This document shows positions 88 through 64,000 of a stretch of DNA of 64,000 nt, one piece after another (position 1 is the stretch's first letter; each line of letters opens with the position of its first letter). The notes under the pieces were generated by a model, which was not told the DNA's origin, searched no databases, and was given only the letters and a program-made list of their open reading frames with translations. Source of the DNA: Thermoplasmata archaeon. Its GTDB lineage: Archaea; Thermoplasmatota; Thermoplasmata; RBG-16-68-12. Location of the stretch: contig DASQGG010000167.1 in assembly GCA_035632695.1 (NCBI GenBank), positions 120 to 64,119 on the forward strand. The letters are read 5' to 3'. Position numbers and translations under genes: made by a program.

Positions 88-227
88 GCCGGGATCCCAC
101 CGCCCCCTAGCGGTACAGGCGCTTCCTCTGTCCGTTTCCGTGCATGCGTGCGCCTCCCCGAAGCCGCGGTCATCTTTGATATTCGGTGCGTTAGCCTTAT
201 CCGCCCGTACTCACGGTGAGGTTACGA

Positions 228-2027
228 ATGCAGCGGATGCTACGCAAGGAGGACGAGGGTGTAGCCGCGGCCGTGGCTACGATGTTTGTCCTGCTCATCG
301 TCCTCATCCTTCTCCAGGTCACCGTGATCGGCGCGGTGCCCGCCCAGCAGTACGATGCGGAGTACAGCACGACCAAGCACGACATCCAGCAGATGGACTT
401 CCTCCGGTCCATGATCGTCGGTCCCGCGGTGGCGGGCGCGCAGGTCTCCGTGCCGTTCGCCCTCGGGACCCAGGCTGTCTCCCCGTTCGCGACCGCGAGC
501 GCGGGGACGCTGAGCTACGCCGCGAGTGACACGGCGGGCGTGTCCGTCTCCTTCGCCTTCGTCCCCCAGTTCCGGCAGGCGTCGGTCAAGAAGATCGACC
601 AGGATGTGATCCTGCTCATGGACGACTCGGGTTCCATGGCGCAGAACGACCCGCAGAACCTCCGGATCGTCGGCGCCCAGAACTACGTCGGGCGGCTCTC
701 CGTCCCCGACTGCGTGGCGATCGTGGCCTTCAACGGCAACTCGTGGCTCACCCAGGCGAACATCGGCGGGGTCGCACACCACCTGTACTATCCGGGCATG
801 TGCGGCAACCCGGACTACACGCAGCCCAAGGTGGACCTCGGCACGATCAGCGACATCGACAGCACGAACATCGGCCGCGCGATCATGACCGGGAACAACG
901 AGCTCATCGCGAACGGCCACAAGGGCAAGGCGTGGGTCGAGATCCTCCTGACGGACGGACAGAACGAGTGCGGTGGCAGCGTGTCGCCGTGCGGCGACGC
1001 GTACACGGTCCAGCAGGCCCAGATCGCCAAGGCGAACAACATCACGATCTTCACGATCGGCCTGTGCAGCTCCGGGGACGGGCCGCTCCTGACCCAGATC
1101 GCCTCGATCACGGGCGGGACGTACTACGCCGCGCCCACGGCCGCCTCGATCAAGTGGATTTACTTCGAGATCAGCATGCACTATCAGAGCTCCGTGCAGT
1201 GCGGGAACGTGTACTCCGCGGAGGCGTACGGCGGTTCCCTCTCCTTGGACCTCAACAACATCTACTACCCCTCCCAGGCCCTCCGGTTCGAATCGGGGGG
1301 GCTGGCTGCCATTCAGCCGGACGGGGCCGTGATGCGGGCGGGATTCCCCCTGGAATACACGTCGTACGGTGACGGCTCCGGGAGTCTTCAAGTCGCTCTG
1401 GTCACGTTGACCGGGAGTTCGTTCCAGAGTTCGGGCGGTGGCACGCACGTTCTTGAAGCGAACGTCCTCGCAAGGCAGGTGGTCGACCAGAATCTCACCA
1501 AGGTGAACCTGGCCTCCGAGGCTCAGAACGTCGCCAACATCTCGTCGAACTTGGCATTCTGGGTGACCCAGGGCGCGGCGACTCCGGCAGGCGCCGCCGC
1601 CGTGAACCAGCCCCTCAACGCGTCCCAGGCGAACCTCCTGGCCGCCAACACGAACATGGTCGCGGGAGACCCGGTCAGCGCGCACTTCAACGTGGACCAG
1701 GCGACGACCAACCTCGCGATCGCGCTGAACGTGACGGAGACCCAGAAGAACAACAACAACATCCAGGGCTGGCTCGCGCAGACCACGGAGGACTCGATCC
1801 TCCTCGAGGAGTGCCGGGTGGGCCAGTGGGCCAACTGGTACACCGGGCTCACAATCACGATCATCACCTCCGCGCCGAGCGCCTGGGCGAGCTGGTTCAA
1901 CACGACGATGCCCGAGTGGAAGATCCCCTTCGATCTCGGAATCTCCGGGAACACCGTGGTCGTCTCCCTGCACGCCCTGAACAGGATCATCACGGACCGC
2001 CGTGTCGTCTCCCTGTCCGCGATGTAG
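228..2027 (+). CDS. von Willebrand factor A (vWA) domain surface protein with N-terminal hydrophobic anchor or pilin-like leader
   Basis: MIDAS motif DDSGSM (LLMDDSGSMAQND) sits in a vWA-like alpha/beta region. The N-terminus MQRMLRKEDEG-VAAAVATMFVLLIVLILL has a charged stretch followed by a hydrophobic stretch. The C-terminal half is Asn/Thr-rich with many N-x-S/T sequons. ATG at 228 is the first ATG of the ORF; the 216 start in the track is a GTG. A TATA-like GCCTTAT lies about 28 nt upstream. Confidence 0.75.
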   Translation: MQRMLRKEDEGVAAAVATMFVLLIVLILLQVTVIGAVPAQQYDAEYSTTKHDIQQMDFLRSMIVGPAVAGAQVSVPFALGTQAVSPFATASAGTLSYAASDTAGVSVSFAFVPQFRQASVKKIDQDVILLMDDSGSMAQNDPQNLRIVGAQNYVGRLSVPDCVAIVAFNGNSWLTQANIGGVAHHLYYPGMCGNPDYTQPKVDLGTISDIDSTNIGRAIMTGNNELIANGHKGKAWVEILLTDGQNECGGSVSPCGDAYTVQQAQIAKANNITIFTIGLCSSGDGPLLTQIASITGGTYYAAPTAASIKWIYFEISMHYQSSVQCGNVYSAEAYGGSLSLDLNNIYYPSQALRFESGGLAAIQPDGAVMRAGFPLEYTSYGDGSGSLQVALVTLTGSSFQSSGGGTHVLEANVLARQVVDQNLTKVNLASEAQNVANISSNLAFWVTQGAATPAGAAAVNQPLNASQANLLAANTNMVAGDPVSAHFNVDQATTNLAIALNVTETQKNNNNIQGWLAQTTEDSILLEECRVGQWANWYTGLTITIITSAPSAWASWFNTTMPEWKIPFDLGISGNTVVVSLHALNRIITDRRVVSLSAM

Positions 2028-2114
2028 GCGTGCCCGTCCCGACCTGACCCTGGATGCGCGGATAATTCGCGACTGTGATAGTGGAGTCCATTTCCTTTTG
2101 AACTCGCGGTCGCA

Positions 2115-2543
2115 ATGGTGGACGTGAGCGTGATGGATTCTCTCCGCGCGGTCCCTGCCGACTTCTTCGCGGACCTCGTCCCGAACGGTAGAATCGAGGC
2201 GGCCATGCTCCTCAAGCGGAACGGACGCATGCTCGCCGCCTGGGCGCGGGCCCCCGTGTCGTGGGAGATCGCCTCGATCATGGCGGCGACCGCGCTGGGA
2301 TCGCTCGAGACCCTGCTGGAGACCCTTCGCTCCCCCTCGCCGCAAGTCCTCACGATTGCGGCCGCGGGCAGCCGCATCCACATCGAGAAGGTGGAGCCCC
2401 AAGGCCTCCTCGTGCTCGTGGCCAAGGAGGCCGTCCCGGAGGCCTACCTGCGTGAGATCGCAAGGCGGGTCGTCGCCAAGCTGCCTCCCCCGTCGAACGG
2501 CGAGCCCCCGCGCCAGGTGACCCTGGGCCCCAACTCCCACTGA
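2115..2543 (+). CDS. Roadblock/LC7 (MglB-like) domain protein
   Basis: At 142 aa it has alpha/beta Roadblock-like sequence (..GRIEAAMLLKRNGRMLAAWA..AAGSRIHIEKVEPQGLLVLVAKEAV..). It sits immediately upstream of a Ras-like GTPase, the classic MglB/MglA arrangement. Confidence 0.7.
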   Translation: MVDVSVMDSLRAVPADFFADLVPNGRIEAAMLLKRNGRMLAAWARAPVSWEIASIMAATALGSLETLLETLRSPSPQVLTIAAAGSRIHIEKVEPQGLLVLVAKEAVPEAYLREIARRVVAKLPPPSNGEPPRQVTLGPNSH

Positions 2544-2704
2544 GGATCGTCCACGCGGCGCCCTGGTTCGCCCGATTCTGAGCCTAGTCCAACGACGTGC
2601 CGTCCCGCGCCCTCGTTCCCCCGGGCGATAGCAACACAAGAATGCTTAAGCGGGGCACGGATTCATGCCTCCGTCCCCCATCCGCATCCCTGAGGCCTAG
2701 GACA

Positions 2705-3259
2705 ATGGAGCGCGAGACCCTCAAGACCAAGGTCTGTCTTGTCGGAGACAACGGCGTCGGGAAGACGTCGCTGATCCGCCGCTACGTCCTCGACATGTAC
2801 GAGGACCGGTACATCAGCACGCTAGGCACGAAGGTCTCCAAGAAGGAGATCCAGGTCTCGTTCCCCAAGGAGAACGTCACCGCGAGCATGGACATGCTCA
2901 TCTGGGACATCATGGGTCAGCACGGGTTCCAGGAGCTCCTCAAGGAGGCCTACTTCTACGGGGCCCGGGGCATCCTGGCCGTCGTCGACCTGACGCGCCG
3001 CTCCACCCTGGACGGGCTCGACGACTGGATCGCGTGCGTCGAGGAGGTCGCGGGGCACCTGCCCGCCCTAATCGCCGTGAACAAGACGGACCTCGCGGAC
3101 AAGGCCGAGTTCGGACTGCCCGAGATCACGGAGCGCTGCAACGCGCTCGGCTGCGGCTACTTCTGGACGAGCGCGAAGACGGGGGAGAACGTGGAAGCTT
3201 CCTTCCAGCGCCTCGCGACGATCGTCGCGGAACAGCAGATCTGGGGCGCCCAGTTCTGA
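2705..3259 (+). CDS. Ras-superfamily small GTPase (MglA/Rab/Arf-like)
   Basis: G1 is GDNGVGKTS, switch I has STLGT, G3 is WDIMGQ, G4 is NKTD and G5 is SAK. The protein is 184 aa starting from the internal ATG at 2705 (METLKTKVCLVGD), so it follows the Roadblock gene. Confidence 0.8.
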   Translation: MERETLKTKVCLVGDNGVGKTSLIRRYVLDMYEDRYISTLGTKVSKKEIQVSFPKENVTASMDMLIWDIMGQHGFQELLKEAYFYGARGILAVVDLTRRSTLDGLDDWIACVEEVAGHLPALIAVNKTDLADKAEFGLPEITERCNALGCGYFWTSAKTGENVEASFQRLATIVAEQQIWGAQF

Positions 3260-3289
3260 GCGGCCGTCAATCCTAAGTGGCGGGACGCC

Positions 3290-3874
3290 GTGGCGGGGCC
3301 GGTGCGGACGACCGCCGCGGAACTCCGGAAGGTCCTGCTCCCTGCGGAGCTCGCGGAGACGGAGCTCTCGTCGAAGCCCGCGTCCGCGGTCCTCGTTCTC
3401 CTGCGGCCCAAGGGCGACGGCCTCGAGGTGCTCCTGGGCCGACGGGCGCGCCGCCAGGGAGACCCGTGGTCGGGGCAGATCTCGTTCCCCGGGGGGCACC
3501 GCCATCAGGAGGACGTCTCCCTCCTGGTCACCGCCCTGCGGGAGACCAACGAGGAGGTGAACCTGGACCTCACGGGACGAGCCGAGGTCCTGGGCCACCT
3601 TCCGCCGCGCTCGCCGGGGAACGTCCCCGAGATGCTCGTCGTGCCCTTCGTCGCCTATACGAACGCTCGGGTGGACCCGAAGCCGGGCCCCGAGATCGTG
3701 GAGACGTTCTGGGCGCCCCTCGCAGAGCTGCCGTCCTCCCGGTCCATGACCACGGTGGCCACGCGCTTCGGCGACCTCCGCGTCCCGGCCTACCTGTGGA
3801 AGGGCCTCGTGATCTGGGGCCTCACGTTCCGGATCCTCGAGGAGCTCCTCCTCCTCGTCGGCATGGGCCGGTGA
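3290..3874 (+). CDS. Nudix hydrolase, CoA pyrophosphatase (NudL/NUDT7-like)
   Basis: The Nudix box GGHRHQEDVSLLVTALRETNEEVNL (GX5EX7REUXEEXGU) is preceded by the NudL-type motif GQISFPGG. Confidence 0.75.
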   Translation: MAGPVRTTAAELRKVLLPAELAETELSSKPASAVLVLLRPKGDGLEVLLGRRARRQGDPWSGQISFPGGHRHQEDVSLLVTALRETNEEVNLDLTGRAEVLGHLPPRSPGNVPEMLVVPFVAYTNARVDPKPGPEIVETFWAPLAELPSSRSMTTVATRFGDLRVPAYLWKGLVIWGLTFRILEELLLLVGMGR

Positions 3875-16968: not shown

Positions 16969-17054
16969 AAGCCCTAATATGGGCGGCCTTCCCTACTTGA
17001 GTCCTGTCCAGGGGGTCGAGACTCGCGCGGACGCTCCTGATCGCACTGGCACTC

Positions 17055-19382
17055 GTGCTCGCCTCCCTCGCGATCCCGGGGGGCGCGGCCGACGCGGCGC
17101 GCTCCGGCGCCTCGACGCGCGGGCTCACGGGCCACGCGCCGATCGACATCGAGGGCAACGCGGGGTTCAACGCCACGAACGGCGTCATGTCAGGGACCGG
17201 GAGCGCGACCGACCCCTACGTGATCTCGGGATGGTCGATTGCGACCGCGGGATCCATGGGCGTCCAGATTCGGAACACGGTCGCCCATGCGGTCCTGCGC
17301 GATCTCCAGGTGACGGGCGCCACCGTGGCGGCACTCTACTTCTACAACGTGGCGAACGTGACCCTGGCGAACGTGACCGCGAGCCTGAACCCGGGCGACG
17401 GGTTTCGTTTCGAATCGAGCCGCGACGTCGCGGTCGGGGGGAGCGACGCAACGGAGAACGCGAACGGCCTCGTCCTCCTGAACACGGTTCGGGCCGTGGT
17501 TCGAGGCACGAACTTCACCGCGAACACGGGCGATGGGGTCCTCCTCACCGGGTCGCCGAACGCCACCTTGCAGGGCAACCGGGTCGCCTACAACGGGTTC
17601 GGCGGCGGTCACGGCATTGAGCTCTCCTTCACCACGGGTGATGCGATTCGGGGGAACGCGTTCACGGGGAATGGTGTCTTCCTCGACGGCGATGCGCTCG
17701 GCTACTTCGACTCCCATGCGATCACGTCGGACAACCTGGTCGGCGGGCTCCCGATCCTCTACGAGAAGGGCCAGAACGGACTCGGACTTTCGGGGATGCA
17801 GGTGGGGCAGGTCCTGCTGGCCGGGTGCCTCCACACGCACCTGTCCAACCTGACCGCGACGGGAGCCGACGTGGGCATCCAGGTCGCGTTCGGCAACAAC
17901 GTGACGGTAGGGCCCGGCGTGACCGTATCCGATACCGCGGTCGGCGTCCAGGTGCTGCAATCTCCGGGGTTCCGGCTCCTGGGGAGCGCCCTTCTCGATA
18001 CCGCTACGGGGGTCCTGGTGCTGTCCTCAGGTAACGCCGCGATCCTCAACACGAAGATTTCCGCGCCGTTCGCGACCTCGGGACCCTACGACGGCGTCGT
18101 GATCCGGAACTCGGGCCTCGCAAACGTCTCGGGCAACCTGATCCGTCACCACCGGAACGCGATTGCAGTCTCGAATTCGGGCAACGCCACCCTGATGGAC
18201 AACGTGGCCCAGTTCAGCGTGGTCGGGTTGAACGTGTCGTCGTCCGCCCACCTTCGCGCGGCCGGGAACCTGATCGTCCAAGACTCCGCGGGGATCCGGC
18301 TCCAGAACGTGACCAACTCGACCTTCTCCGGGAACGCGGTCCTCGGGATCCTGGGCACGGGCGCGAACGTCTCCGGCTCCTCGAGCCTCAGGTTCGTCCA
18401 CAACACCTTCGGCGGCGCCCGCACCAACGCGTACGACGCCTGGGGTCCGAGCGACCGTTGGAACGCGAGCTATCCCACGGGCGGCAACTTCTGGGCCGAC
18501 TACCACGGCGTCGACCAGTGCCACGGCTCCCTGCAGAACGATTGCACGGGCGGCGACGGGATCGGCGACACGCCCTACCCGTTCGCCGTGAACGCGGAGG
18601 ACCGGTATCCTCTCATGGTGCCTCCCGTGAACGCGAGCCTGCCCCCGGAGGCGATCCTCGTGGTCGCGCCGCTCGAGGGTACCGTGCTTACACCGTTCGA
18701 GGCCACGGCGAACCTGTCTTCCGACTTCAAGGATTCCCTCGCGTCCCTTCAGGTGCGGTGGTCCTGGGACGACGGGCTGTCGTGGACCCCGTGGTCGACC
18801 GCAAAGTTCGTCTCCCACCGATTCGCCACCGTGGGCGCCCACACGGTCGACCTCGAGGTGCGGAACCGCGCCGGCCTCACGGACAACGCGACGGAGCGAG
18901 TGATCCTGGTCCCGAAGCCGGACACGGTGCCGCCGGCGATCCTGTTTTCGCCTCCCGCGAGCGCGAACGTGTACATGCCCATCCCGCTCGTCGCGAATCT
19001 CTCGGATCTCAGCGGCATTGCGAACGCCACGGTGCTCTTCCAGGGTGTGGACGGCGGACCGTTCCTTCCCCTGTCGATGCGGATCGAGAGCGGCGGCGAG
19101 AACTTCACGGCGACGGTCCCCGCGCAGTCCCACGCGGGCACGGTTGCCGTCGTCCTCTTTGCGAACGACACGTGGGCCAACGAAGCCCGCGCACCGCTCG
19201 TGGGTGCGTCGACAATCCGGATCGTGGACACGCAGACCCCGATTCTCATCGGGTTCGCCCTAGCCGCCTCCCTGATCGCCGCGGTCGCGGTCGTGTTCTT
19301 CCTTCTCCGGAGGAAGCGCAAGCGGCCGGCGGTCCCGCCCGCGGCTCCCGCCGAACCCGCGCGCCCACCCGAGAAGCCTTAA
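17055..19382 (+). CDS. surface protein with right-handed parallel beta-helix repeats (pectate-lyase/NosD-like) and a PKD domain, C-terminal TM anchor
   Basis: Repeating G-x-x-x-x-N-x-(V/I/L) rungs occur (NTVRAVVRGTNFTANTGDGVLLTGSPNATLQGNRV..). A PKD-like WSWDDGLSWTPW..HTVDLEVRNRAGLTDNATERVILV is present. The C-terminal TM ILIGFALAASLIAAVAVVFFLL is followed by RRKRKRP. The start is uncertain: only GTG 17055 is available, yet an in-frame signal-peptide-like ..RTLLIALALVLASLAIP.. lies upstream without a canonical start. Confidence 0.7.
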   Translation: MLASLAIPGGAADAARSGASTRGLTGHAPIDIEGNAGFNATNGVMSGTGSATDPYVISGWSIATAGSMGVQIRNTVAHAVLRDLQVTGATVAALYFYNVANVTLANVTASLNPGDGFRFESSRDVAVGGSDATENANGLVLLNTVRAVVRGTNFTANTGDGVLLTGSPNATLQGNRVAYNGFGGGHGIELSFTTGDAIRGNAFTGNGVFLDGDALGYFDSHAITSDNLVGGLPILYEKGQNGLGLSGMQVGQVLLAGCLHTHLSNLTATGADVGIQVAFGNNVTVGPGVTVSDTAVGVQVLQSPGFRLLGSALLDTATGVLVLSSGNAAILNTKISAPFATSGPYDGVVIRNSGLANVSGNLIRHHRNAIAVSNSGNATLMDNVAQFSVVGLNVSSSAHLRAAGNLIVQDSAGIRLQNVTNSTFSGNAVLGILGTGANVSGSSSLRFVHNTFGGARTNAYDAWGPSDRWNASYPTGGNFWADYHGVDQCHGSLQNDCTGGDGIGDTPYPFAVNAEDRYPLMVPPVNASLPPEAILVVAPLEGTVLTPFEATANLSSDFKDSLASLQVRWSWDDGLSWTPWSTAKFVSHRFATVGAHTVDLEVRNRAGLTDNATERVILVPKPDTVPPAILFSPPASANVYMPIPLVANLSDLSGIANATVLFQGVDGGPFLPLSMRIESGGENFTATVPAQSHAGTVAVVLFANDTWANEARAPLVGASTIRIVDTQTPILIGFALAASLIAAVAVVFFLLRRKRKRPAVPPAAPAEPARPPEKP

Positions 19383-57051: not shown

Positions 57052-58074
57052 TCACCCGAACCAGGTGTCCAGCGATTTCTGCTTCTGGGCGCCTCGGGCC
57101 TCGGTGAACTTGGCCAGCGCCTGGTCGATGCGGTCCCGCGAGAACGCGAACTCGTCGCAGAGCATCCTGCGAACGCCCTCCGCATCGGGGTCCCGGAACT
57201 CGATGGGGACCTCGGGCAGGACACGAGGCTCGAGGAAGATCCGGCGCACCTCGTCCTTGGACTCGATGTCGATCTGGAGTTCGTCGAGCGCGGGCTCCAG
57301 GGAGCCGTGCTTCTTGATCAACGCGAGCGCCTTCTTGGGCCCGATGCCCCGCACGCCCTCGTTGAAGTCCGTGCCGATGAGGAGGGCCATGTCCACGAGC
57401 TGCTCCCGCGTGATCCCGAGCGCGGTCAGCGTGGCCTCGAGTCCGATCTCCTCGGGCTGCACATCCACATAGACCTCCTTCCGCGGGAGCTTCCGGCGAC
57501 CCGTGATCGCGAGGTTCTTCACGAGGCGCGGCGAGCCGAAGAGGAGGGAATCGTAGTCCTGGGACGCCGCGGCGTACGCGGTGCCGGAGCGGGCCATGGC
57601 GGACGCCTGGGCCTCGCCCTCGCTAGGCGCCTGGACGCAGGGCACGCCCAGGAGCCCGAGGAGCCGCTTGGACTGCTCGACTATCTCCCGCGTCAGGCGC
57701 GAGGTCTGCATGGCCTTCGTCCTCGCCCTGGCCAGATCGCCGATCTCCACGGCCTCCTTCCACTCCCGCTCCGCGCGGACCTTGACCTCGTCGCGCTCGC
57801 TGATCGTGCGGGCCTTGAGCCGCGGCGGCTCGCCGTCGAACACGAACACGGGCCGGATGCCCGCGGCCACGAAGTTGGACAGGCGGTAGATCAGGCCGCT
57901 CAGGTGGGACGTGATCCGGCCCTGCCCGTCCATGAGCGGCGTGCCGTCGGGCTGGCGGATGATCGCGAGGAACTGGTACAGGGTGTTGAACGCGTCGATC
58001 GCAAGGACCTTTCCGGAGAAGTCCTCCAGGGCGCGCTTCTCCGGCGACACGATGTCGGAGAGGATGACTCCCAT
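57052..58074 (-). CDS. fen: flap endonuclease 1 (FEN-1)
   Basis: XPG-N (MGVILSDIV..AIDAFNTLYQFL) and XPG-I (..QAPSEGEAQASAM..SQDYDSLLFG) domains, a helix-2-turn-helix (GIGPKKAL), and a C-terminal PIP box QKSLDTWF. Confidence 0.9.
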   Translation of the reverse strand: MGVILSDIVSPEKRALEDFSGKVLAIDAFNTLYQFLAIIRQPDGTPLMDGQGRITSHLSGLIYRLSNFVAAGIRPVFVFDGEPPRLKARTISERDEVKVRAEREWKEAVEIGDLARARTKAMQTSRLTREIVEQSKRLLGLLGVPCVQAPSEGEAQASAMARSGTAYAAASQDYDSLLFGSPRLVKNLAITGRRKLPRKEVYVDVQPEEIGLEATLTALGITREQLVDMALLIGTDFNEGVRGIGPKKALALIKKHGSLEPALDELQIDIESKDEVRRIFLEPRVLPEVPIEFRDPDAEGVRRMLCDEFAFSRDRIDQALAKFTEARGAQKQKSLDTWFG

Positions 58075-58114
58075 GGCGTCGCTCCAATGGCGGGCGCGCC
58101 TAAAACCCTGCCGT

Positions 58115-61100
58115 CTACATCTGAGCCTGGCGGATCCCGAGGTACAGGGTGTCCTTGCCCAGGACCGCCTCGATCACGTACGCGTCTTGGGGCGCCTTCG
58201 ACGCGAAGCGCACCTCGAGGGCGTTCGCCTCCCGGAGGATCATGTCCCGCCAGGGCTTGAGCATGCCGCGGACCTCCGAGCTCCCGACGATGTCGAGCTC
58301 CACGACGCTCTCCTCGGTGAGGTTCAGGTCCTTGCGGGAGTCCTTCACGATCCCCACGATTTCCCGCGCGTAGCCTTCCGCGAGGAGGTCCTTGTTGAGC
58401 CGCGTGTCCAGGTAGATCACGCCGCCGTCGAAGGGCTCCTCGACGACGTGCTCGGGAATGCTCTCGACGAAGGAGACCATGCTCGGGTCGATCCGCACCT
58501 TCTGGCCCTCGATGCCCACGGAGTACTCGCCCTTGTCGAGGCCCGCCTTGATCTTCCAGGCGTCCTGGCTCCGGAGGAGGATCTCGATCTTCTTCGCCCA
58601 CAGCTTGTACGCCGCGGACACGGAGTCCATGTGGACGTCGATGTCGATCTTCATCCCCCGCCAGGTCTCGTTGGGGGGGATGATGTCGAGCTCCTTCGCG
58701 CCGCTTTGCCCAACGATGATCTTGCGGAACGCGCTCACCGCGTCGTAGACCAGGGGATCGCTCGCCTGGATTGCGAGTCGGGACACGGGCCAGTACCGCT
58801 CGATCCCGGCGCGCATCTTCGCCTGGAAGGCCGCCTCGAGGGCGCGGCGCAGCACGTCCACGAACGCCTGGACCTGCTCGTCGGAAAGCTGGAGGGTACC
58901 CGCTTCCTTGGCGGTCAGGACCTCCTTCTGGATCTGCTTCTGGATCTCCTCCGTCGGACCGACCGTCGCGTCGCGGACCTTCTGGAGCATCTGGGCACCC
59001 ACTTCGAAGCCGCCCTCCTCGATCGCAGCGCAGGCGGCTTCCAGGAAGTCGCCCTCCTTCCCGCCGAGCAGCCCGCGGTCGAGGAGGATGGGGATCTTGC
59101 TGACCGGCGTGTCTTCGAGGGGTCCCAGGGAGACGCCCTCCACCTCGGTGGCGAAGAGGAGCTTCCGGACCAGGTCCTGGACGCCGTCCAGGACCCCGAG
59201 GTCCCCGCTCCAGTTCTCGAGGCGGATGCCGTAGGCGTCGTGGATCTCCTTGAGGACCTGGACCGTGTAGAGCGGGAGGACCCGCGGCTCCTTGCCGCGG
59301 ATTCCCAGGATTACGAACATCTGGGGCCCGCGCGCGGCGAAGAGGTTCTGATGGCCCATCTTCGCTCGCTGGACCCCTCGGGCCCCGGAGTCCGCGAAGG
59401 CCTTCGTGATGAGGGCCTTGGCCTGGGCCTCCATGGTCGCGGCCTTGTCCGCCTCCTCGGCGGAGAGGTACACGCGGCTCTCGTGGCAGATCAGGTCCCC
59501 GCCCTCATGGAACAGGATTGCGTCCTCGATCGAGTAGCCGTCCTCCGCCTCCACGCGAACAATCTTGGAGTCCGTGACCTGGTGCTTCGCATCGTCGAGA
59601 GGGCGGGTGTAGTGGATCTCGAAGTCGAGGTCCATGGTGCCCGCTTCCCGCGGGCGGACGCCGAACTCGAGGGAGACTTTCTCGTTGGGGTCCAGCTTCT
59701 CCACGCTGTGGAGCCCATGGACGTCGGCAGGGCCGTTGACCACGGGGATGATGTTCTTCGCGGGCCAGTCCCCCTTGTTCTCGATCCGGAGCTCCATCCG
59801 GTTCCACCGGTTCGCCTGGAGGCCCGCGTTCTTCTCTTCGAGGAAGAGGCGCGGGTAGCGGTCCCGGAGGATCTGCTCGAGGCGCGCCCTCGCGGTCGCC
59901 TCAGCCCGGTCGATCAGGGGCTCGAGCCCCTTGAAGTCCTCGGCCTTGAGCGCCTCCTCGGCCTTTGCGAGCAGGACCTCCACATCGCCCAGGTCCGCGT
60001 GGACCTCCTTGGCCTCCGCGACGGTCGCCTGGAGCTTGGCGAGTTCCTCTTTGGCCCGCGCCAGGACCGTGTGGCGCCGCTGGCGCGCCAGGCTGTCCTT
60101 GGCGCGGCGGAGGTAGTCCTCCATCTGCCGGTAGTTCTTCCGCTGGATGGCCGCCTCGATCTTCGTGAGGTACGACTCCGCCTCGCGGGCGTCGAGGTTC
60201 TGGCTCTTGGCGATCTGGATGTCGTTGATCAGGGAAGCGAGCTCAATCTCCACGCGCTTCGCCGCGATTTCCCCCTTCGCGCGCTCCAGGGACTCGTGGA
60301 GCCCCGCGTGGATCTCGCGGACGCGCTCGTACTTCCCCTCGTGGAACGCTTCTTCGGCTTCCCGGAGGAGCAGCTCCGCCTGGCTCACGTCGACCCCGAG
60401 GGACCGCATCTCGCCGACCGTGTCGCGGGCCGCGGCCATGAGGTCTCCCATGCGGCTCTGCAGCTGCTCCTGGGCCGCGTCCGCCTGCGCCTTCGCCTGT
60501 TCGATGAACTGGAGAGCGAGCCGCACGTCCGTCTCGAGGGTCGACTGGGCCTTCGCGAGGAGCTCGTTCGCCGCCACGGTCTGCTCGACGCCGAGGGCGT
60601 CGATGAGCTTCGCGGTCAGGGTAATCGGGCTGTCCGCGAGCGCCCCCATGTCCGCGTTGGGGTCGGTCGCCACGTAGAGGAGCTTCTTGATGACGTCGTC
60701 GATCCCGTCGAGCTGGTGCAGGAGCCCCGTCCACTTGTCGAGGACGGTCCCATATTTCGTCTCGACCTCCTGGAGGATCTGCGCCATGTAGAGCGGGAGG
60801 AGCCGCGGTTCCTCGCCCACGACGACCGTGGCCAGGTACGTGTGGTCCGAGCGCTCGATGAGGACCTTCTCGTCCCCGAAGCCGAGTCGGTCGAGGCCCT
60901 TCCGGGCGCGCTTGAAGGAATCCTTGACGAAGTCCCGGACGACGGTCAGCATGCCCGAGAAGATGTCCTCGTCGATCTCCTCGCGGAACTTGCGGGAGTG
61001 GTGGCTGATCAGCCGGCCGTCCGAGTGGATCAGGAACACATCCTCCACGAGGTACGTGCCCTCGGGCTCCACCTTGACGCTTTGCCGGTCCTTGAGCTCG

Positions 61101-64000
61101 TAGCGGTTCTCGTCGAACATCCGCTGGTACGCGACGTCGACCGTGATGGGCAGATCTCCCGAGGTCCCCGGCTTCAGCCCAACCTCGACGAGCTTCCGCT
61201 CCCCGACGCCGAGCTCGGCGATCGGCGTGGAGCCCTTGACCTCGACGTCGCCCTCGAACCCGAACTCCACGTTCCGCGCGGGGAGCTTGCCCCGGTTCTC
61301 GACCTCGAACACGTAGCGGTTCCAGTTGTTCGCCTGGAGGCCCGTGGTCGGGAGGTGGAGGACCAGGTTCGGGTAGCGGTTCTTGATGAAGTTCGCGATC
61401 TGCATCCCGATGGAGACCTCGGCCTGTTTGATTAGGATGTCCGCCATCGCGAGGTCGTTCTTGCGGACCGCCTCCTCGGCCTGGGCCAGGGACGATTCCG
61501 ACTCGCCGATCTCCGCGCCGAGGCGCTTCGCGTTCGCGATCATGGCGGAGACCGCGTGCATCCGGGACTGGTAGCGGTTGATGAAATGATCACTGCGCGA
61601 CTTCTCGAGGGCCTCCTTCGCTGAGGCGACGCCGTTCTGGAAGCCGGGGACGTCCCCTGCCTCGATGGCGTGGCGAGCGTCGTCGAGCTTCCCGCGGGCC
61701 TCGGCCACGGGGATCCCGAGCCGCTCGCTCTGGACGAGCAGGTCCTCGAGGGTCTGGACCTCCTCGAGGGACCGGCGCTGGAGGGCTTTCTGCTTCGCCT
61801 CGAGCACCTTCTCCTGGAGGTCTCCCTTGATCTTGTAGACGGCCTCGAGGTCGCCGGCGACCGCCGCCTCCGCGGCGTGCTGCCGCGACTCCTGAAGTTC
61901 CTCGGAGAGGAGCCCGAGTTCGAGCCCTTCGTCGATCAGGGGCGAAAGGGATCCGACGAGGCCGTCCAGGTGGGCCTTCGAGGCGATGTCGATCGCCTCG
62001 GAGATCTCCTTGCGGTACGTCTCCATCTCCTCCAGGTTCCCTTCGGAGGCGCGCGCGTCCGCCTTGTCCCAGATTTCTTGGGGGATGCGCATGTCCGCCC
62101 CGAGCTTGGCATGGGCGTCGATGCTCGCCTTGAGCTCGGCGAGCTCGTCCCGCAGGGAGCGTGTGGCACGGTCGCGGCGTGCATCCGTCAGGATGTCCTC
62201 GATGACCTTCTTGTACTCGATCGCCTCGACGTACCGTCCGTCCTCGATCGCCTCGTGGGCGTTCACGAGGACCATGGCCGCGCGCCCCGGGTCGAGACCC
62301 GCGGTCTTCGTCTCTTCGAGGTCGCGCTCCGCCGTGCCGACGAGGTCGCGCGCCGCGGCCTCGAGCCCGATCGCGAGCCCCTGGGCCATCTCCTGGGTCT
62401 CGGCGAGTTCGGCGTGGACCTCGGGGAAGCGCCCTTCTTCGAGGGACTGCTCCGCCCGGGCCATGGCGGCGTCGGCGTTCACGATGGAGATGTCCGCCCG
62501 GGCCAGGTCCGCGAGGACTTTCCGGAGGGCTTGCAGCTCCTTCCGGGCGGCATCCTGGGCCTTGCGGAGTTCGAGCGCCTTGGCGTCCTCGATGAGCTTG
62601 AGCGCTTCCGTCATCCGCGTTTCGGCGGCGCGGGCGAACTCGACCGCGTCCGCGTATTCCTCGTGGTCGAAGTGGCTCTGCGCGCGGGCGAGCTGGTCCG
62701 CCGCGTCGGTCACGTCGACCCCGTTCTCCATCCCCTCCTGAATCTTCCTCTCGGCGCGCTGGATGAGCGCGCGGGCCGCCGCGACGAGCTCGTCCATGAG
62801 CTCCTTGGCCGTGTCGTCAAGGCCGCTCAGGATCGCATCGACGTCATCGAACGCACGTTCGTCGAGGGCTTTCTCCGCTTTGTGGAGGTCCTCCTCGGCG
62901 CCCGTGATGTCGATGTCGGCCTTCCGGAGATCCTCGATGAGCTTCTTGACCGCGATGAACTTCGTGGCGGCGGACTTCGCCTTGTCCATGGCCACGCGCT
63001 GTTGCTCCAAGAGCCGATCGCGGCGCTTGCCCTCGATCACCCGATCGAGGTCCTCCGCGGCTCGGATGGCGAGGCCCGCCCGGCCCTCCTTGAGGTGGGC
63101 CTCCGCTTCCCCGAGGGACGCCTCCATCTCCGGGGTGAGGTAGCTCTCCTCGCGGGCCGTCGCGATCTTCTCGCGCAGGTGATCAAGTGCCGTGGCCGCC
63201 TGCTGCTGCAGGGCGACCTTGGCGCCGTCCACGAGGCCCTCCGCCGCCGCGACGTACCGCTCCGCCCGATCCAGGTCCTCGTCCTTGATGGCCTGGTCCG
63301 CGCTCGCGAGGAGGGCCAGCGCCTTCGCGAGATCGAGTTTCTCCTCGACGAGGTGCCGGACTTCCTGGCCCACCGCCTGCATCCGTGCCTGGAGTCCCTG
63401 CACGCGGTCCGCCCGGGCCTGGGCTTCCTGCTCGCGGCTCTCGGCCTTGGCTTGGAGGGCCGATTGGGTGATCCGCTGGACTTCGTCGATGCAGGACTTG
63501 CTGATGTAGATCGTGTCGCCGTAGCGGCCCTCCGCGTATGCGGATTCGGCCTCCTTGAGCATCATGAGCACGGGCGCGTCCACGGAGAGACCCCCGGCCT
63601 GCGCGTGGTCAATCTCGCCCCGAGCGCGGCCGAGGACTTCGGCGGCCTCCCCCCGGAGGGTCTCCCGCAACGTCTGGAAGTCGTGTTCCACGGCGTCGAG
63701 CAGCCCGTCCGCGTTCGGGAACCGGCGCTCTTGGACCGCGATCGCCGCATCAGCGAGCTTGCCTTCCATGGCGATCGTGTCCTGGCCCGCCTGGCGCAGC
63801 TTGACAATTTCGTCGCGCGCCCGCAGGACCCGGTCGCCGAGGTTCCTCTCCGCCTCGGCGTCCGTCGTGTGGAGGTGCTCGTCGATGAGGGCTTGCAGGT
63901 CCACCGTCTTCCCGAGGGAGATCGCGTCGTCCACCTGGCGGAGGAGCTGGCGGCCGACTTCGGGGTCGAGCCCGCGCGGGGCGTTGATGAGAATGACCTT
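58115..64000 (-). CDS. giant coiled-coil / helical-repeat protein (>1,960 aa, N-terminus beyond the window edge) with duplicated beta-sandwich plus Roadblock-like modules and an aaRS-C-terminal-like tail
   Basis: One uninterrupted frame runs from the window edge (in-frame ..KVILINAPRGLDPEVGRQLLRQ before the first GTG/Met at 63934) to the stop at 58115. The composition is E/A/R/K/L/D-rich. At least 13 helical units of about 70-80 aa share the motif A-E-x-[AS]-x-x-E-G-[RK]-[YF] (for example AESAYAEGRYGD, AEAHLKEGRAG, AEEAFHEGKYER). Two paralogous modules of about 250 aa (aa about 845-1095 and 1352-1597; DNA 60652-61402 and 59146-59881) begin [ND]RYP[NR]L..LQAN.WNR..L.IEN.G..PA.N. The C-terminal segment ..LDTRLNKDLLAEGYAREIVGIVKDSRKDLNLTEESVVEL.. 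resembles class I aaRS (IleRS) C-terminal motifs. Confidence 0.6.
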   Translation of the reverse strand, partial: KVILINAPRGLDPEVGRQLLRQVDDAISLGKTVDLQALIDEHLHTTDAEAERNLGDRVLRARDEIVKLRQAGQDTIAMEGKLADAAIAVQERRFPNADGLLDAVEHDFQTLRETLRGEAAEVLGRARGEIDHAQAGGLSVDAPVLMMLKEAESAYAEGRYGDTIYISKSCIDEVQRITQSALQAKAESREQEAQARADRVQGLQARMQAVGQEVRHLVEEKLDLAKALALLASADQAIKDEDLDRAERYVAAAEGLVDGAKVALQQQAATALDHLREKIATAREESYLTPEMEASLGEAEAHLKEGRAGLAIRAAEDLDRVIEGKRRDRLLEQQRVAMDKAKSAATKFIAVKKLIEDLRKADIDITGAEEDLHKAEKALDERAFDDVDAILSGLDDTAKELMDELVAAARALIQRAERKIQEGMENGVDVTDAADQLARAQSHFDHEEYADAVEFARAAETRMTEALKLIEDAKALELRKAQDAARKELQALRKVLADLARADISIVNADAAMARAEQSLEEGRFPEVHAELAETQEMAQGLAIGLEAAARDLVGTAERDLEETKTAGLDPGRAAMVLVNAHEAIEDGRYVEAIEYKKVIEDILTDARRDRATRSLRDELAELKASIDAHAKLGADMRIPQEIWDKADARASEGNLEEMETYRKEISEAIDIASKAHLDGLVGSLSPLIDEGLELGLLSEELQESRQHAAEAAVAGDLEAVYKIKGDLQEKVLEAKQKALQRRSLEEVQTLEDLLVQSERLGIPVAEARGKLDDARHAIEAGDVPGFQNGVASAKEALEKSRSDHFINRYQSRMHAVSAMIANAKRLGAEIGESESSLAQAEEAVRKNDLAMADILIKQAEVSIGMQIANFIKNRYPNLVLHLPTTGLQANNWNRYVFEVENRGKLPARNVEFGFEGDVEVKGSTPIAELGVGERKLVEVGLKPGTSGDLPITVDVAYQRMFDENRYELKDRQSVKVEPEGTYLVEDVFLIHSDGRLISHHSRKFREEIDEDIFSGMLTVVRDFVKDSFKRARKGLDRLGFGDEKVLIERSDHTYLATVVVGEEPRLLPLYMAQILQEVETKYGTVLDKWTGLLHQLDGIDDVIKKLLYVATDPNADMGALADSPITLTAKLIDALGVEQTVAANELLAKAQSTLETDVRLALQFIEQAKAQADAAQEQLQSRMGDLMAAARDTVGEMRSLGVDVSQAELLLREAEEAFHEGKYERVREIHAGLHESLERAKGEIAAKRVEIELASLINDIQIAKSQNLDAREAESYLTKIEAAIQRKNYRQMEDYLRRAKDSLARQRRHTVLARAKEELAKLQATVAEAKEVHADLGDVEVLLAKAEEALKAEDFKGLEPLIDRAEATARARLEQILRDRYPRLFLEEKNAGLQANRWNRMELRIENKGDWPAKNIIPVVNGPADVHGLHSVEKLDPNEKVSLEFGVRPREAGTMDLDFEIHYTRPLDDAKHQVTDSKIVRVEAEDGYSIEDAILFHEGGDLICHESRVYLSAEEADKAATMEAQAKALITKAFADSGARGVQRAKMGHQNLFAARGPQMFVILGIRGKEPRVLPLYTVQVLKEIHDAYGIRLENWSGDLGVLDGVQDLVRKLLFATEVEGVSLGPLEDTPVSKIPILLDRGLLGGKEGDFLEAACAAIEEGGFEVGAQMLQKVRDATVGPTEEIQKQIQKEVLTAKEAGTLQLSDEQVQAFVDVLRRALEAAFQAKMRAGIERYWPVSRLAIQASDPLVYDAVSAFRKIIVGQSGAKELDIIPPNETWRGMKIDIDVHMDSVSAAYKLWAKKIEILLRSQDAWKIKAGLDKGEYSVGIEGQKVRIDPSMVSFVESIPEHVVEEPFDGGVIYLDTRLNKDLLAEGYAREIVGIVKDSRKDLNLTEESVVELDIVGSSEVRGMLKPWRDMILREANALEVRFASKAPQDAYVIEAVLGKDTLYLGIRQAQM

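Follow-up and report, generated by a model that had tools for sequence, protein, structure and literature searches.

Eukaryotic membrane trafficking depends centrally on longin and Roadblock platforms. In the dimers formed by these domains, helix alpha1 makes up the platform face, as in the MglA-MglB, TRAPP and Mon1-Ccz1 structures. Archaeal platforms of this kind have been discussed mainly for Asgard lineages, and the longin fold can be told from the Roadblock fold because it has no N-terminal helix and carries extra C-terminal helices (PMC10933270). A second relevant system is the C-terminal tRNA-binding region of type-2 isoleucyl-tRNA synthetase (IleRS), made up of the domains ARD2, INS and ARD3. 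In the P. megaterium enzyme (PmIleRS2), ARD3 reads anticodon base G34 via R964, Q961, K965 and L969, and the R964A substitution abolishes charging; C-terminal domain loss and remodelling of IleRS are ongoing in prokaryotes (bioRxiv 10.64898/2026.02.03.703510, from which the domain names are also taken).

In this study, we analyzed a 64,000-nucleotide stretch of DNA from a Thermoplasmata archaeon (contig DASQGG010000167.1), referred to below as the window. At its right end lies a gene for a giant protein, for which a first-pass annotation, made from the sequence alone, had proposed helical repeats, a duplicated module and a synthetase-like tail. We describe here how this protein combines two modules, each with an immunoglobulin-like (Ig) and a longin-like domain, with a C-terminal head derived from IleRS, the parts being spaced by a long array of helical repeats. 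Both this architecture and the longin-like family to which its domains belong are unreported in the searchable literature, which holds nothing on DUF5915, the Pfam family matched by the head, and nothing relevant on longin or Roadblock domains in Thermoplasmata.

Results

The giant gene occupies positions 58115..64000 on the minus strand, where its C-terminal 1961 codons plus the stop are found (residue numbers below refer to this part). Between the window edge (position 64000) and the stop codon at 58115-58117 the frame contains no internal stop, and its GC content by codon position (0.72/0.38/0.93) is a coding signature at 67% genome GC. A public protein, P0001 (2299 amino acids [aa], partial, named 'DUF5915 domain-containing protein [Thermoplasmata archaeon]'), is 100% identical to it. 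Approximately 70 orthologues were found, with identities down to 30%, each encoded by a single open reading frame (ORF), and 45 of the approximately 58 full-length ones measure 2381 to 2388 aa. As these single-ORF orthologues are mostly of equal length, the gene is real and its product is one polypeptide: the locus encodes one giant protein of about 2,384 aa at full length. By comparison with P0001 and the full-length 2384-aa orthologues, approximately 423 N-terminal residues fall outside the window. The first-pass annotation was thus correct in treating the frame as a single ORF whose N-terminus lies beyond the window, and no split into several genes was seen. It had also found no obvious family. 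This is not quite accurate, since a tight orthologous family does exist, with a database name limited to the DUF5915 label. The gene is present in approximately 50 species in a scan of GTDB genomes, all of them uncultivated Thermoplasmata-type metagenome-assembled genomes from soil and sediment.

Pfam, NCBIfam and PDB searches of the giant protein detected neither ABC-type ATPase heads or a hinge nor S-layer domains, so that a place in the SMC or S-layer families, which the first-pass annotation had named as an outcome that would refute it, found no match. An SMC-like identity was rejected, as there was no SMC, Rad50 or ATPase match. A 1174-aa ORF on the plus strand (57911-61435) was likewise rejected as a gene; it is most likely a high-GC artefact, because it is antisense to the giant gene and failed the coding-frame filter for high GC at third and low GC at second codon positions.

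The full-length protein is arranged in the following order: a zinc ribbon, approximately 17 helical repeats, an Ig/CARDB domain plus a longin-like domain (module 1), three repeats, a second Ig plus longin-like pair, a helical linker, and the ARD2-INS-ARD3 head. Identities within a set of distant orthologues differ greatly among these parts, amounting to 66% for longin-like domain 1, 58% for CARDB 1, 50% for the IleRS-like head, 34% for longin-like domain 2 and 31% for the helical repeats. Module 1 is therefore the best conserved region and the head the second best. The repeats show the lowest conservation, yet they contain only 0.7% gaps in the same set. This pattern, with module 1 and the head conserved and the repeats variable but poor in indels, suggests functional end-modules held apart by a length-constrained spacer.

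The C-terminal head (aa 1708-1961; 58118..58879, minus strand) follows a helical linker (aa 1640-1707; 58880..59083, minus strand; helices H13-61 of AF2 model B). Pfam DUF5915 (PF19302) matched aa 1803-1938 with 43.9 bits against a cut-off of 27, and it did likewise in the orthologues. The family profile of the head (alignment A2) matched yeast IleRS residues 817-1038 in the PDB (E=1.7e-8) and also P. megaterium IleRS2. A structural model of the C-terminus reached a predicted local distance difference test (pLDDT) score of 85.5, and Foldseek aligned it to 8c8w (P. megaterium IleRS2; E=1.4e-14) and 8wnd (2e-13) with a probability of 1.00. Judged by profiles and by the model, the last approximately 250 aa are thus homologous to the ARD2-INS-ARD3 tRNA-binding domains of type-2 IleRS, which bears out an earlier suggestion that the tail recalls the C-terminal junction of IleRS. 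In the profile alignment to the PDB IleRS sequences, PmIleRS2 R964, Q961, K965 and L969 correspond to R, K, K and L of the giant's motif VKDSRKDLNL. The R964 equivalent, Arg1889 (codon 58334..58336, minus strand), is invariant in alignment A2 (position 250), even in the most distant members, which are only 32-36% identical over the region. The K965 equivalent is kept in the window sequence and in the family consensus, and the L969 equivalent is kept in the window sequence. Neither the window protein nor the full-length orthologue P0002 gave a tRNA-synt_1 or Anticodon_1 match, the MupA model was matched only at positions 792-989 of 1024, and no HUP catalytic domain, editing domain or ARD1 was found in either protein. 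As ARD1 and all catalytic domains are absent, the giant is not a synthetase.

A BLAST comparison of the protein with itself (split query) showed aa 800-1127 and aa 1306-1634 to be paralogous, with 31% identity across 329 aligned residues (E=2.35e-61). Within the first copy, an Ig-like beta-sandwich (aa 878-964; 61109..61369, minus strand) matched Pfam CARDB (PF07705; E=1e-6, 29.3 bits against a cut-off of 22.7), although a search of PDB sequences with the CARDB segment returned nothing useful. Its paralogue in the second copy (aa 1384-1470; 59591..59851, minus strand), recognized through the internal duplication, gave only a sub-threshold Pfam match to the HYDIN/VesB Ig family (aa 1402-1466, E=0.003). 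Each beta-sandwich is followed by a longin-like domain. Longin-like domain 1 (aa 985-1110; 60671..61048, minus strand) is the most conserved part of the entire protein and bears the family signature, HHSRKFREEIDEDIFSGMLTVVRDFVKDSF, across the beta2-alpha1 loop and the alpha1 helix. Longin-like domain 2 (aa 1491-1617; 59150..59530, minus strand), identified by the duplication and by a hidden Markov model (HMM) built from alignment A1 (domain E=1.2e-67), is more diverged and has lost the helix-alpha1 signature (SAEEADKAATMEAQAKALITKAF).

The longin-like domain (approximately 125 aa) was modelled from alignment A1, which holds both copies from 27 orthologues. The model (pLDDT 87; predicted template modelling score 0.84) has the topology b1-b2-a1-b3-b4-b5-a2-a3, with a five-stranded antiparallel sheet and no N-terminal helix. 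Roadblock/LC7 and MglB structures scored below longins in the fold comparison (7.9-8.5). On the strength of this model, the segment is predicted to be a bona fide longin fold, and longin is preferred to Roadblock because the N-terminal helix is lacking and extra C-terminal helices are present. Consistently, the giant's domain showed neither the N-terminal helix of the Roadblock/LC7/MglB family (PF03259) nor a Pfam Robl_LC7 match. Residues 975-1135 matched no Pfam family at E<=10 and no NCBIfam family, and the longin profile found no match among PDB sequences. The duplication of approximately 250 aa, the CARDB/Ig-like beta-sandwich and the Roadblock- or longin-like segment of the first-pass annotation were therefore all recovered: copy 1 of the sandwich passes the Pfam threshold with copy 2 as its paralogue, and the fold of the model belongs to the longin/Roadblock superfamily, with longin the nearer of the two. 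A related protein, P0077, is a 2171-aa giant of the low-GC type (K/E/I-rich) that has three Ig+longin modules and ends in the same IleRS-like region; its available sequence shows no N-terminal zinc ribbon.

When the longin-like profile was searched against 1.84 billion cluster representatives (50% identity), 4155 representatives were found at E<=1e-3 and 2432 at E<=1e-10. All members bearing organism names belong to Methanomassiliicoccales, Thermoplasmata or Thermoplasmatota. Neither Pfam nor NCBIfam recognizes the domain in the small family members, while JGI names one member 'Roadblock/LC7/MglB family'. Conservation within the family peaks across the beta2-alpha1 loop and the alpha1 helix, where the signature reads H.TRRLKP..DDDILSGMLTAIQ.FVKDSF; copy 1 of the giant retains this signature and copy 2 has lost it. 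Outside the giant family, the majority are type-I membrane proteins (e.g., P0152, P0162, P0139 and P0143, the last being MDD1755844.1; range P0109-P0340), in which a PKD, FG-GAP or Ig ectodomain is followed by a transmembrane (TM) helix, basic stop-transfer residues, the longin-like domain and often a zinc ribbon. Of the 152 members listed, 77, mostly non-giant ones, have a TM helix immediately before the domain. Other layouts include four TM helices with two tandem domains, a zinc ribbon with the domain, and one or two TM helices with the domain. Since it stands after the basic residues behind the TM helix, the domain is placed on the cytoplasmic side, and in these relatives it forms a juxtamembrane cytoplasmic tail. 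The existence of TM-anchored relatives points to membrane-linked partners for the giant. The window also encodes a 793-aa protein with a NosD/right-handed beta-helix and PKD domains (17001-19382, plus strand), which is probably a surface protein; the A1 HMM found no longin-like tail in it.

Twelve helical repeats precede module 1 (aa 64-883; 61352..63811, minus strand), and repeats 13-15 lie between the two modules (aa 1194-1388; 59837..60421, minus strand); the array extends upstream through aa 1-63. The repeats were detected by a self-HMM seeded from 8 motif matches, which found 15 units at the first pass and, after iteration, 15 solid units plus 1 weak unit in the window, the E-values of the later iterations being circular. 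In the full-length orthologue P0002, 20 units were found. The repeat core is 64 aa long, the spacing is 63-84 aa, and the consensus I..(x)..G.D(V/I)..AE..L..AE.A...G.Y is followed by a long helix. An earlier estimate of at least 13 repeats of 70-80 aa was thus right as to tandem helical repeats, but there are 15-16 units with a shorter core. Searches of the PDB with the repeat profile matched only de novo designed helical proteins, and nothing above noise (HAUS5, E=0.012) was obtained with the N-terminal 870 aa. The repeat is therefore best described, from its sequence, as a presumably generic helical hairpin or bundle unit without a known natural family. Among the first eight repeats (aa 64-623; 62132-63811), the spacing alternates between approximately 65 and approximately 77-84 aa (65, 84, 65, 77, 64, 78, 65), which hints at a super-repeat of approximately 143-149 aa composed of two units.

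The N-termini of the orthologues carry a conserved CxxC-x9-11-CxxC zinc ribbon followed by further helical repeats. The zinc ribbon thus occupies the place where a signal peptide would be, and a hydrophobic, TM-like segment is missing from almost all giant-family members listed. For these two reasons, the protein is predicted to be cytoplasmic, and the family sequences show a soluble protein with no detectable catalytic domain or signal peptide.

Small GTPases were considered both in the window and at related loci. In the window, a Ras-family small GTPase is encoded at 2705-3256 on the plus strand (probable start 2705; Pfam Ras E=2.4e-30; pair region 2082-3259), preceded by a 142-aa ORF (2112-2540, plus strand) with a Robl_LC7 match at E=0.0021 (18.2 bits against a cut-off of 23). 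Of the standalone Roadblock plus GTPase pair noted at 2.1-3.3 kb by the first-pass annotation, the GTPase is well supported, but the Roadblock partner stays below threshold. When compared with the TM-type longin-like profile using hhalign, the 142-aa product gave no significant match (probability 3%), and it is therefore not claimed as a member of the longin-like family. The pair is flanked by genes for a 610-aa VWA-domain protein upstream (195-2027, plus strand) and a NUDIX hydrolase downstream (3260-3874, plus strand).

A closer association was seen elsewhere. In three related genomes (L057 6001-7441, L059 182-1631 and L060 4001-5468), a two-TM longin-like protein of 189-195 aa is encoded 53-65 bp upstream of, and on the same strand as, a 271-aa Ras/Arf/Roc GTPase, which is 41% identical to the window GTPase (E=3e-45). 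This gene layout resembles that of MglB-MglA. Because the three genomes are related, the pairing counts as one lineage-level observation. Near the giant gene itself, no GTPase was found within 10 kb in three of the four orthologous loci examined, and the window pair is 55 kb away. At the fourth and most distant locus (L002 22432-23957 and L003 19219-20744), a 295-aa Arf/Ras/Roc GTPase lies approximately 6.5 kb downstream of the giant with unrelated genes between them. Two small unannotated ORFs (114 and 87 aa) precede the L002/L003 GTPase.

The genes around the giant locus encode ribulose-phosphate epimerase and transketolase upstream, and FEN1, DUF92, PGM and a nucleotidyl transferase downstream. 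FEN1, a flap endonuclease gene, begins 25-57 bp downstream of the giant gene on the same strand, both in the window and at each of the four orthologous loci examined, including that of the 30%-identity orthologue. A TATA-like YTTTA(G/C)G box lies approximately 25 nt before the FEN1 ATG in the window (spacer 58075-58114) and in three of the four loci (spacers L001 8346-8384, L005 17159-17215 and L004 12328-12365), whereas the 25-bp spacer of L002 has no such box. The box suggests that FEN1 may have its own promoter and a leaderless mRNA despite the tight spacing. Operon coupling of FEN1 to the giant gene was rejected on the grounds of this conserved box.

Discussion

The preferred explanation, which we hold tentatively and put at somewhat below an even chance, is that the giant is a non-enzymatic cytoplasmic adaptor, in which a membrane- or GTPase-linked longin platform is coupled to an RNA-binding head over a fixed distance. 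The repeats would make up an extended rod, and the near-absence of indels would reflect strong selection on its length. The longin domains would act as dimeric docking platforms, as longin and Roadblock domains do elsewhere; they may pair mutually or with the juxtamembrane longin-like tails of surface proteins, and possibly with a Ras-like GTPase. Indirectly in keeping with this, the stretch conserved best in the domain family includes helix alpha1, the helix of the platform face, and longin-like domain 1 retains its signature. The IleRS-derived head, with its anticodon-reading Arg kept, would bind RNA, the simplest candidate being a tRNA anticodon arm. The fixed length of the protein could thereby couple the longin platform physically to the RNA-binding head. 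The first-pass annotation had read the locus as a GTPase-docking scaffold or cytoskeleton-like element. A longin-like paralogue with two TM helices does adjoin a GTPase, in keeping with that reading, while the distance of the giant from the window pair and the three loci devoid of a nearby GTPase do not favor it.

Several observations weigh against an adaptor of this kind. The position equivalent to Q961 is variable in the family, being K in the window, and the IleRS-derived region is devoid of ARD1, the reader of anticodon bases 35 and 36; hence specificity for tRNA(Ile), or RNA binding at all, is putative. The neighborhood consists of housekeeping genes that are syntenic as a block, and so it gives no functional clue. 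When the window and approximately 400 kb of related loci were searched with the HMM, longin-like domains were found only in the giant genes. As no tail gene appeared in the searched loci, the co-occurrence of the giant and TM-type tails in the same genome is suggested by a single soil Thermoplasmata example (P0247).

Two other explanations can be considered. The giant could be purely a small-GTPase platform, in which the two longin domains form an intramolecular pseudo-heterodimer serving as a guanine nucleotide exchange factor (GEF), GTPase-activating protein or anchor for a Ras/Arf-like GTPase in the manner of MglB, Ragulator, TRAPP or Mon1-Ccz1, with the rod and the IleRS domain acting as a mere protein-protein scaffold. 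The longin fold, the two diverged copies per chain (three in P0077), the two-TM paralogue encoded just ahead of a Ras-like GTPase in three related genomes, the 41% identical GTPase within the window and the JGI label on one family member are all consistent with this idea. However, the window GTPase is 55 kb distant, three of four orthologous loci carry none within 10 kb, and the gene adjacency was seen in only one lineage, for another paralogue. Longin domains in many proteins (SNAREs, AP sigma and mu subunits, and SRX) are not GTPase regulators, and the invariant anticodon-reading Arg would be left unexplained; we therefore regard a pure GTPase platform as unlikely. A translation or tRNA factor, acting in trans as a tRNA(Ile) binder or as a scaffold of an aminoacyl-tRNA synthetase (aaRS) complex, would instead aid or replace the C-terminus of a remodelled IleRS, with the rod and longins organizing translation components. 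This would account for the significant homology to ARD2-INS-ARD3 in both sequence and structure, for the invariance of the R964 equivalent and the conservation of the K965 equivalent in the window and family consensus, and for the rank of the C-terminus as second best conserved region; the documented loss and remodelling of IleRS C-termini in prokaryotes (bioRxiv 10.64898/2026.02.03.703510) also fits. ARD1 and the catalytic core are absent, though, the Q961-equivalent position varies, and neither the rest of the protein nor its neighborhood has any translation-related feature, which makes such a factor rather doubtful.

Even less can be said for a role in DNA replication or repair or for a position outside the cell. 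The proximity of FEN1, on the same strand after 25-57 bp at the window locus and at four of four orthologous loci, might indicate a structural protein co-expressed with it, comparable to the long coiled coils of SMC or Rad50. Yet the whole region is syntenic housekeeping, the TATA-like box suggests a separate FEN1 promoter, and there is no SMC, Rad50, ATPase or DNA-binding domain match, so that a DNA role is highly improbable. An extracellular or surface protein (S-layer or adhesin-like) would be the usual setting for a CARDB domain, and longin-like relatives are attached to surface proteins. The orthologues, however, begin with a zinc ribbon rather than a signal peptide and have no TM segments, the longin-like domain appears cytoplasmic in the TM-type relatives, and the IleRS-derived domain is of cytoplasmic origin. 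We consider this the least probable explanation, and a surface-protein identity was rejected on the basis of the zinc-ribbon N-terminus and the absence of TM segments.

The adaptor reading can be carried further, to a speculation that is very doubtful at present: the giant might be the core of a non-Asgard archaeal 'cortex', a rod that attaches to the longin-like tails of surface proteins by longin-longin pairing, is controlled by a Ras-like GTPase, and holds tRNA or the translation machinery by its IleRS head. If true, this 'cortex' would be a prokaryotic membrane skeleton built on the longin/GTPase logic of eukaryotic trafficking and evolved outside Asgard. In any case, the giant offers testable hypotheses on cell organization in uncultivated soil and sediment Thermoplasmata.

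As to known systems, only the CARDB and IleRS-type modules belong, at the sequence level, to curated families; the longin-like domain is known by its predicted fold. This fold is common to the longins Sec22b, VAMP7 and Ykt6, the N-terminal domains of AP sigma/mu, TRAPPC1/2/4, Mon1-Ccz1 and the Asgard longins (e.g., PDB 8yqg), with which the giant's domain shares only 5-12% sequence identity and which Pfam and NCBIfam do not recognize in the giant. Unlike these longins, it is found in a non-Asgard host, directly after an Ig/CARDB domain within a 2,384-aa rod, and without a SNARE, adaptor or GEF context. It differs from the Roadblock/LC7/MglB domains that work with MglA-type GTPases in that it has no Roadblock N-terminal helix, scores lower against them than against longins and is encoded by a gene that is not beside a GTPase, while the window GTPase has a separate, weakly Roadblock-like partner. 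The head resembles the type-2 IleRS C-terminal region over approximately 220-255 residues, with the R964, K965 and L969 equivalents kept in the window. HUP, the editing domain and ARD1 are lacking, however, the Q961 equivalent is not conserved, and the region sits on a scaffold and not on a synthetase. Domains for tRNA recognition by an aaRS are rarely met outside a synthetase, and the giant provides one such case. The rod is like those of spectrin/plakin or EzrA in having tandem helical repeats of fixed number, indel-free length and flanking binding modules, and a distant relative, P0075, gave a sub-threshold Spectrin match. The giant's repeat, however, is 64 aa long as opposed to 106, and no significant match links it to spectrin, EzrA or another natural protein in the PDB.

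Related by sequence are the type-I surface proteins of Thermoplasmatota (e.g., MDD1755844.1 from Methanomassiliicoccales), which carry the same longin-like domain with a strong signature (E down to 1e-30 to 1e-50) and, as in the giant, have zinc ribbons and an Ig-like domain directly before it. These proteins are membrane-bound with one C-terminal copy, whereas the giant is soluble, with two copies plus the rod and the head derived from IleRS. The longin fold found here in Thermoplasmata is part of an unannotated family of thousands of members, which is tied to surface proteins and zinc ribbons, and to a Ras-like GTPase in one case; this family merits a Pfam entry.

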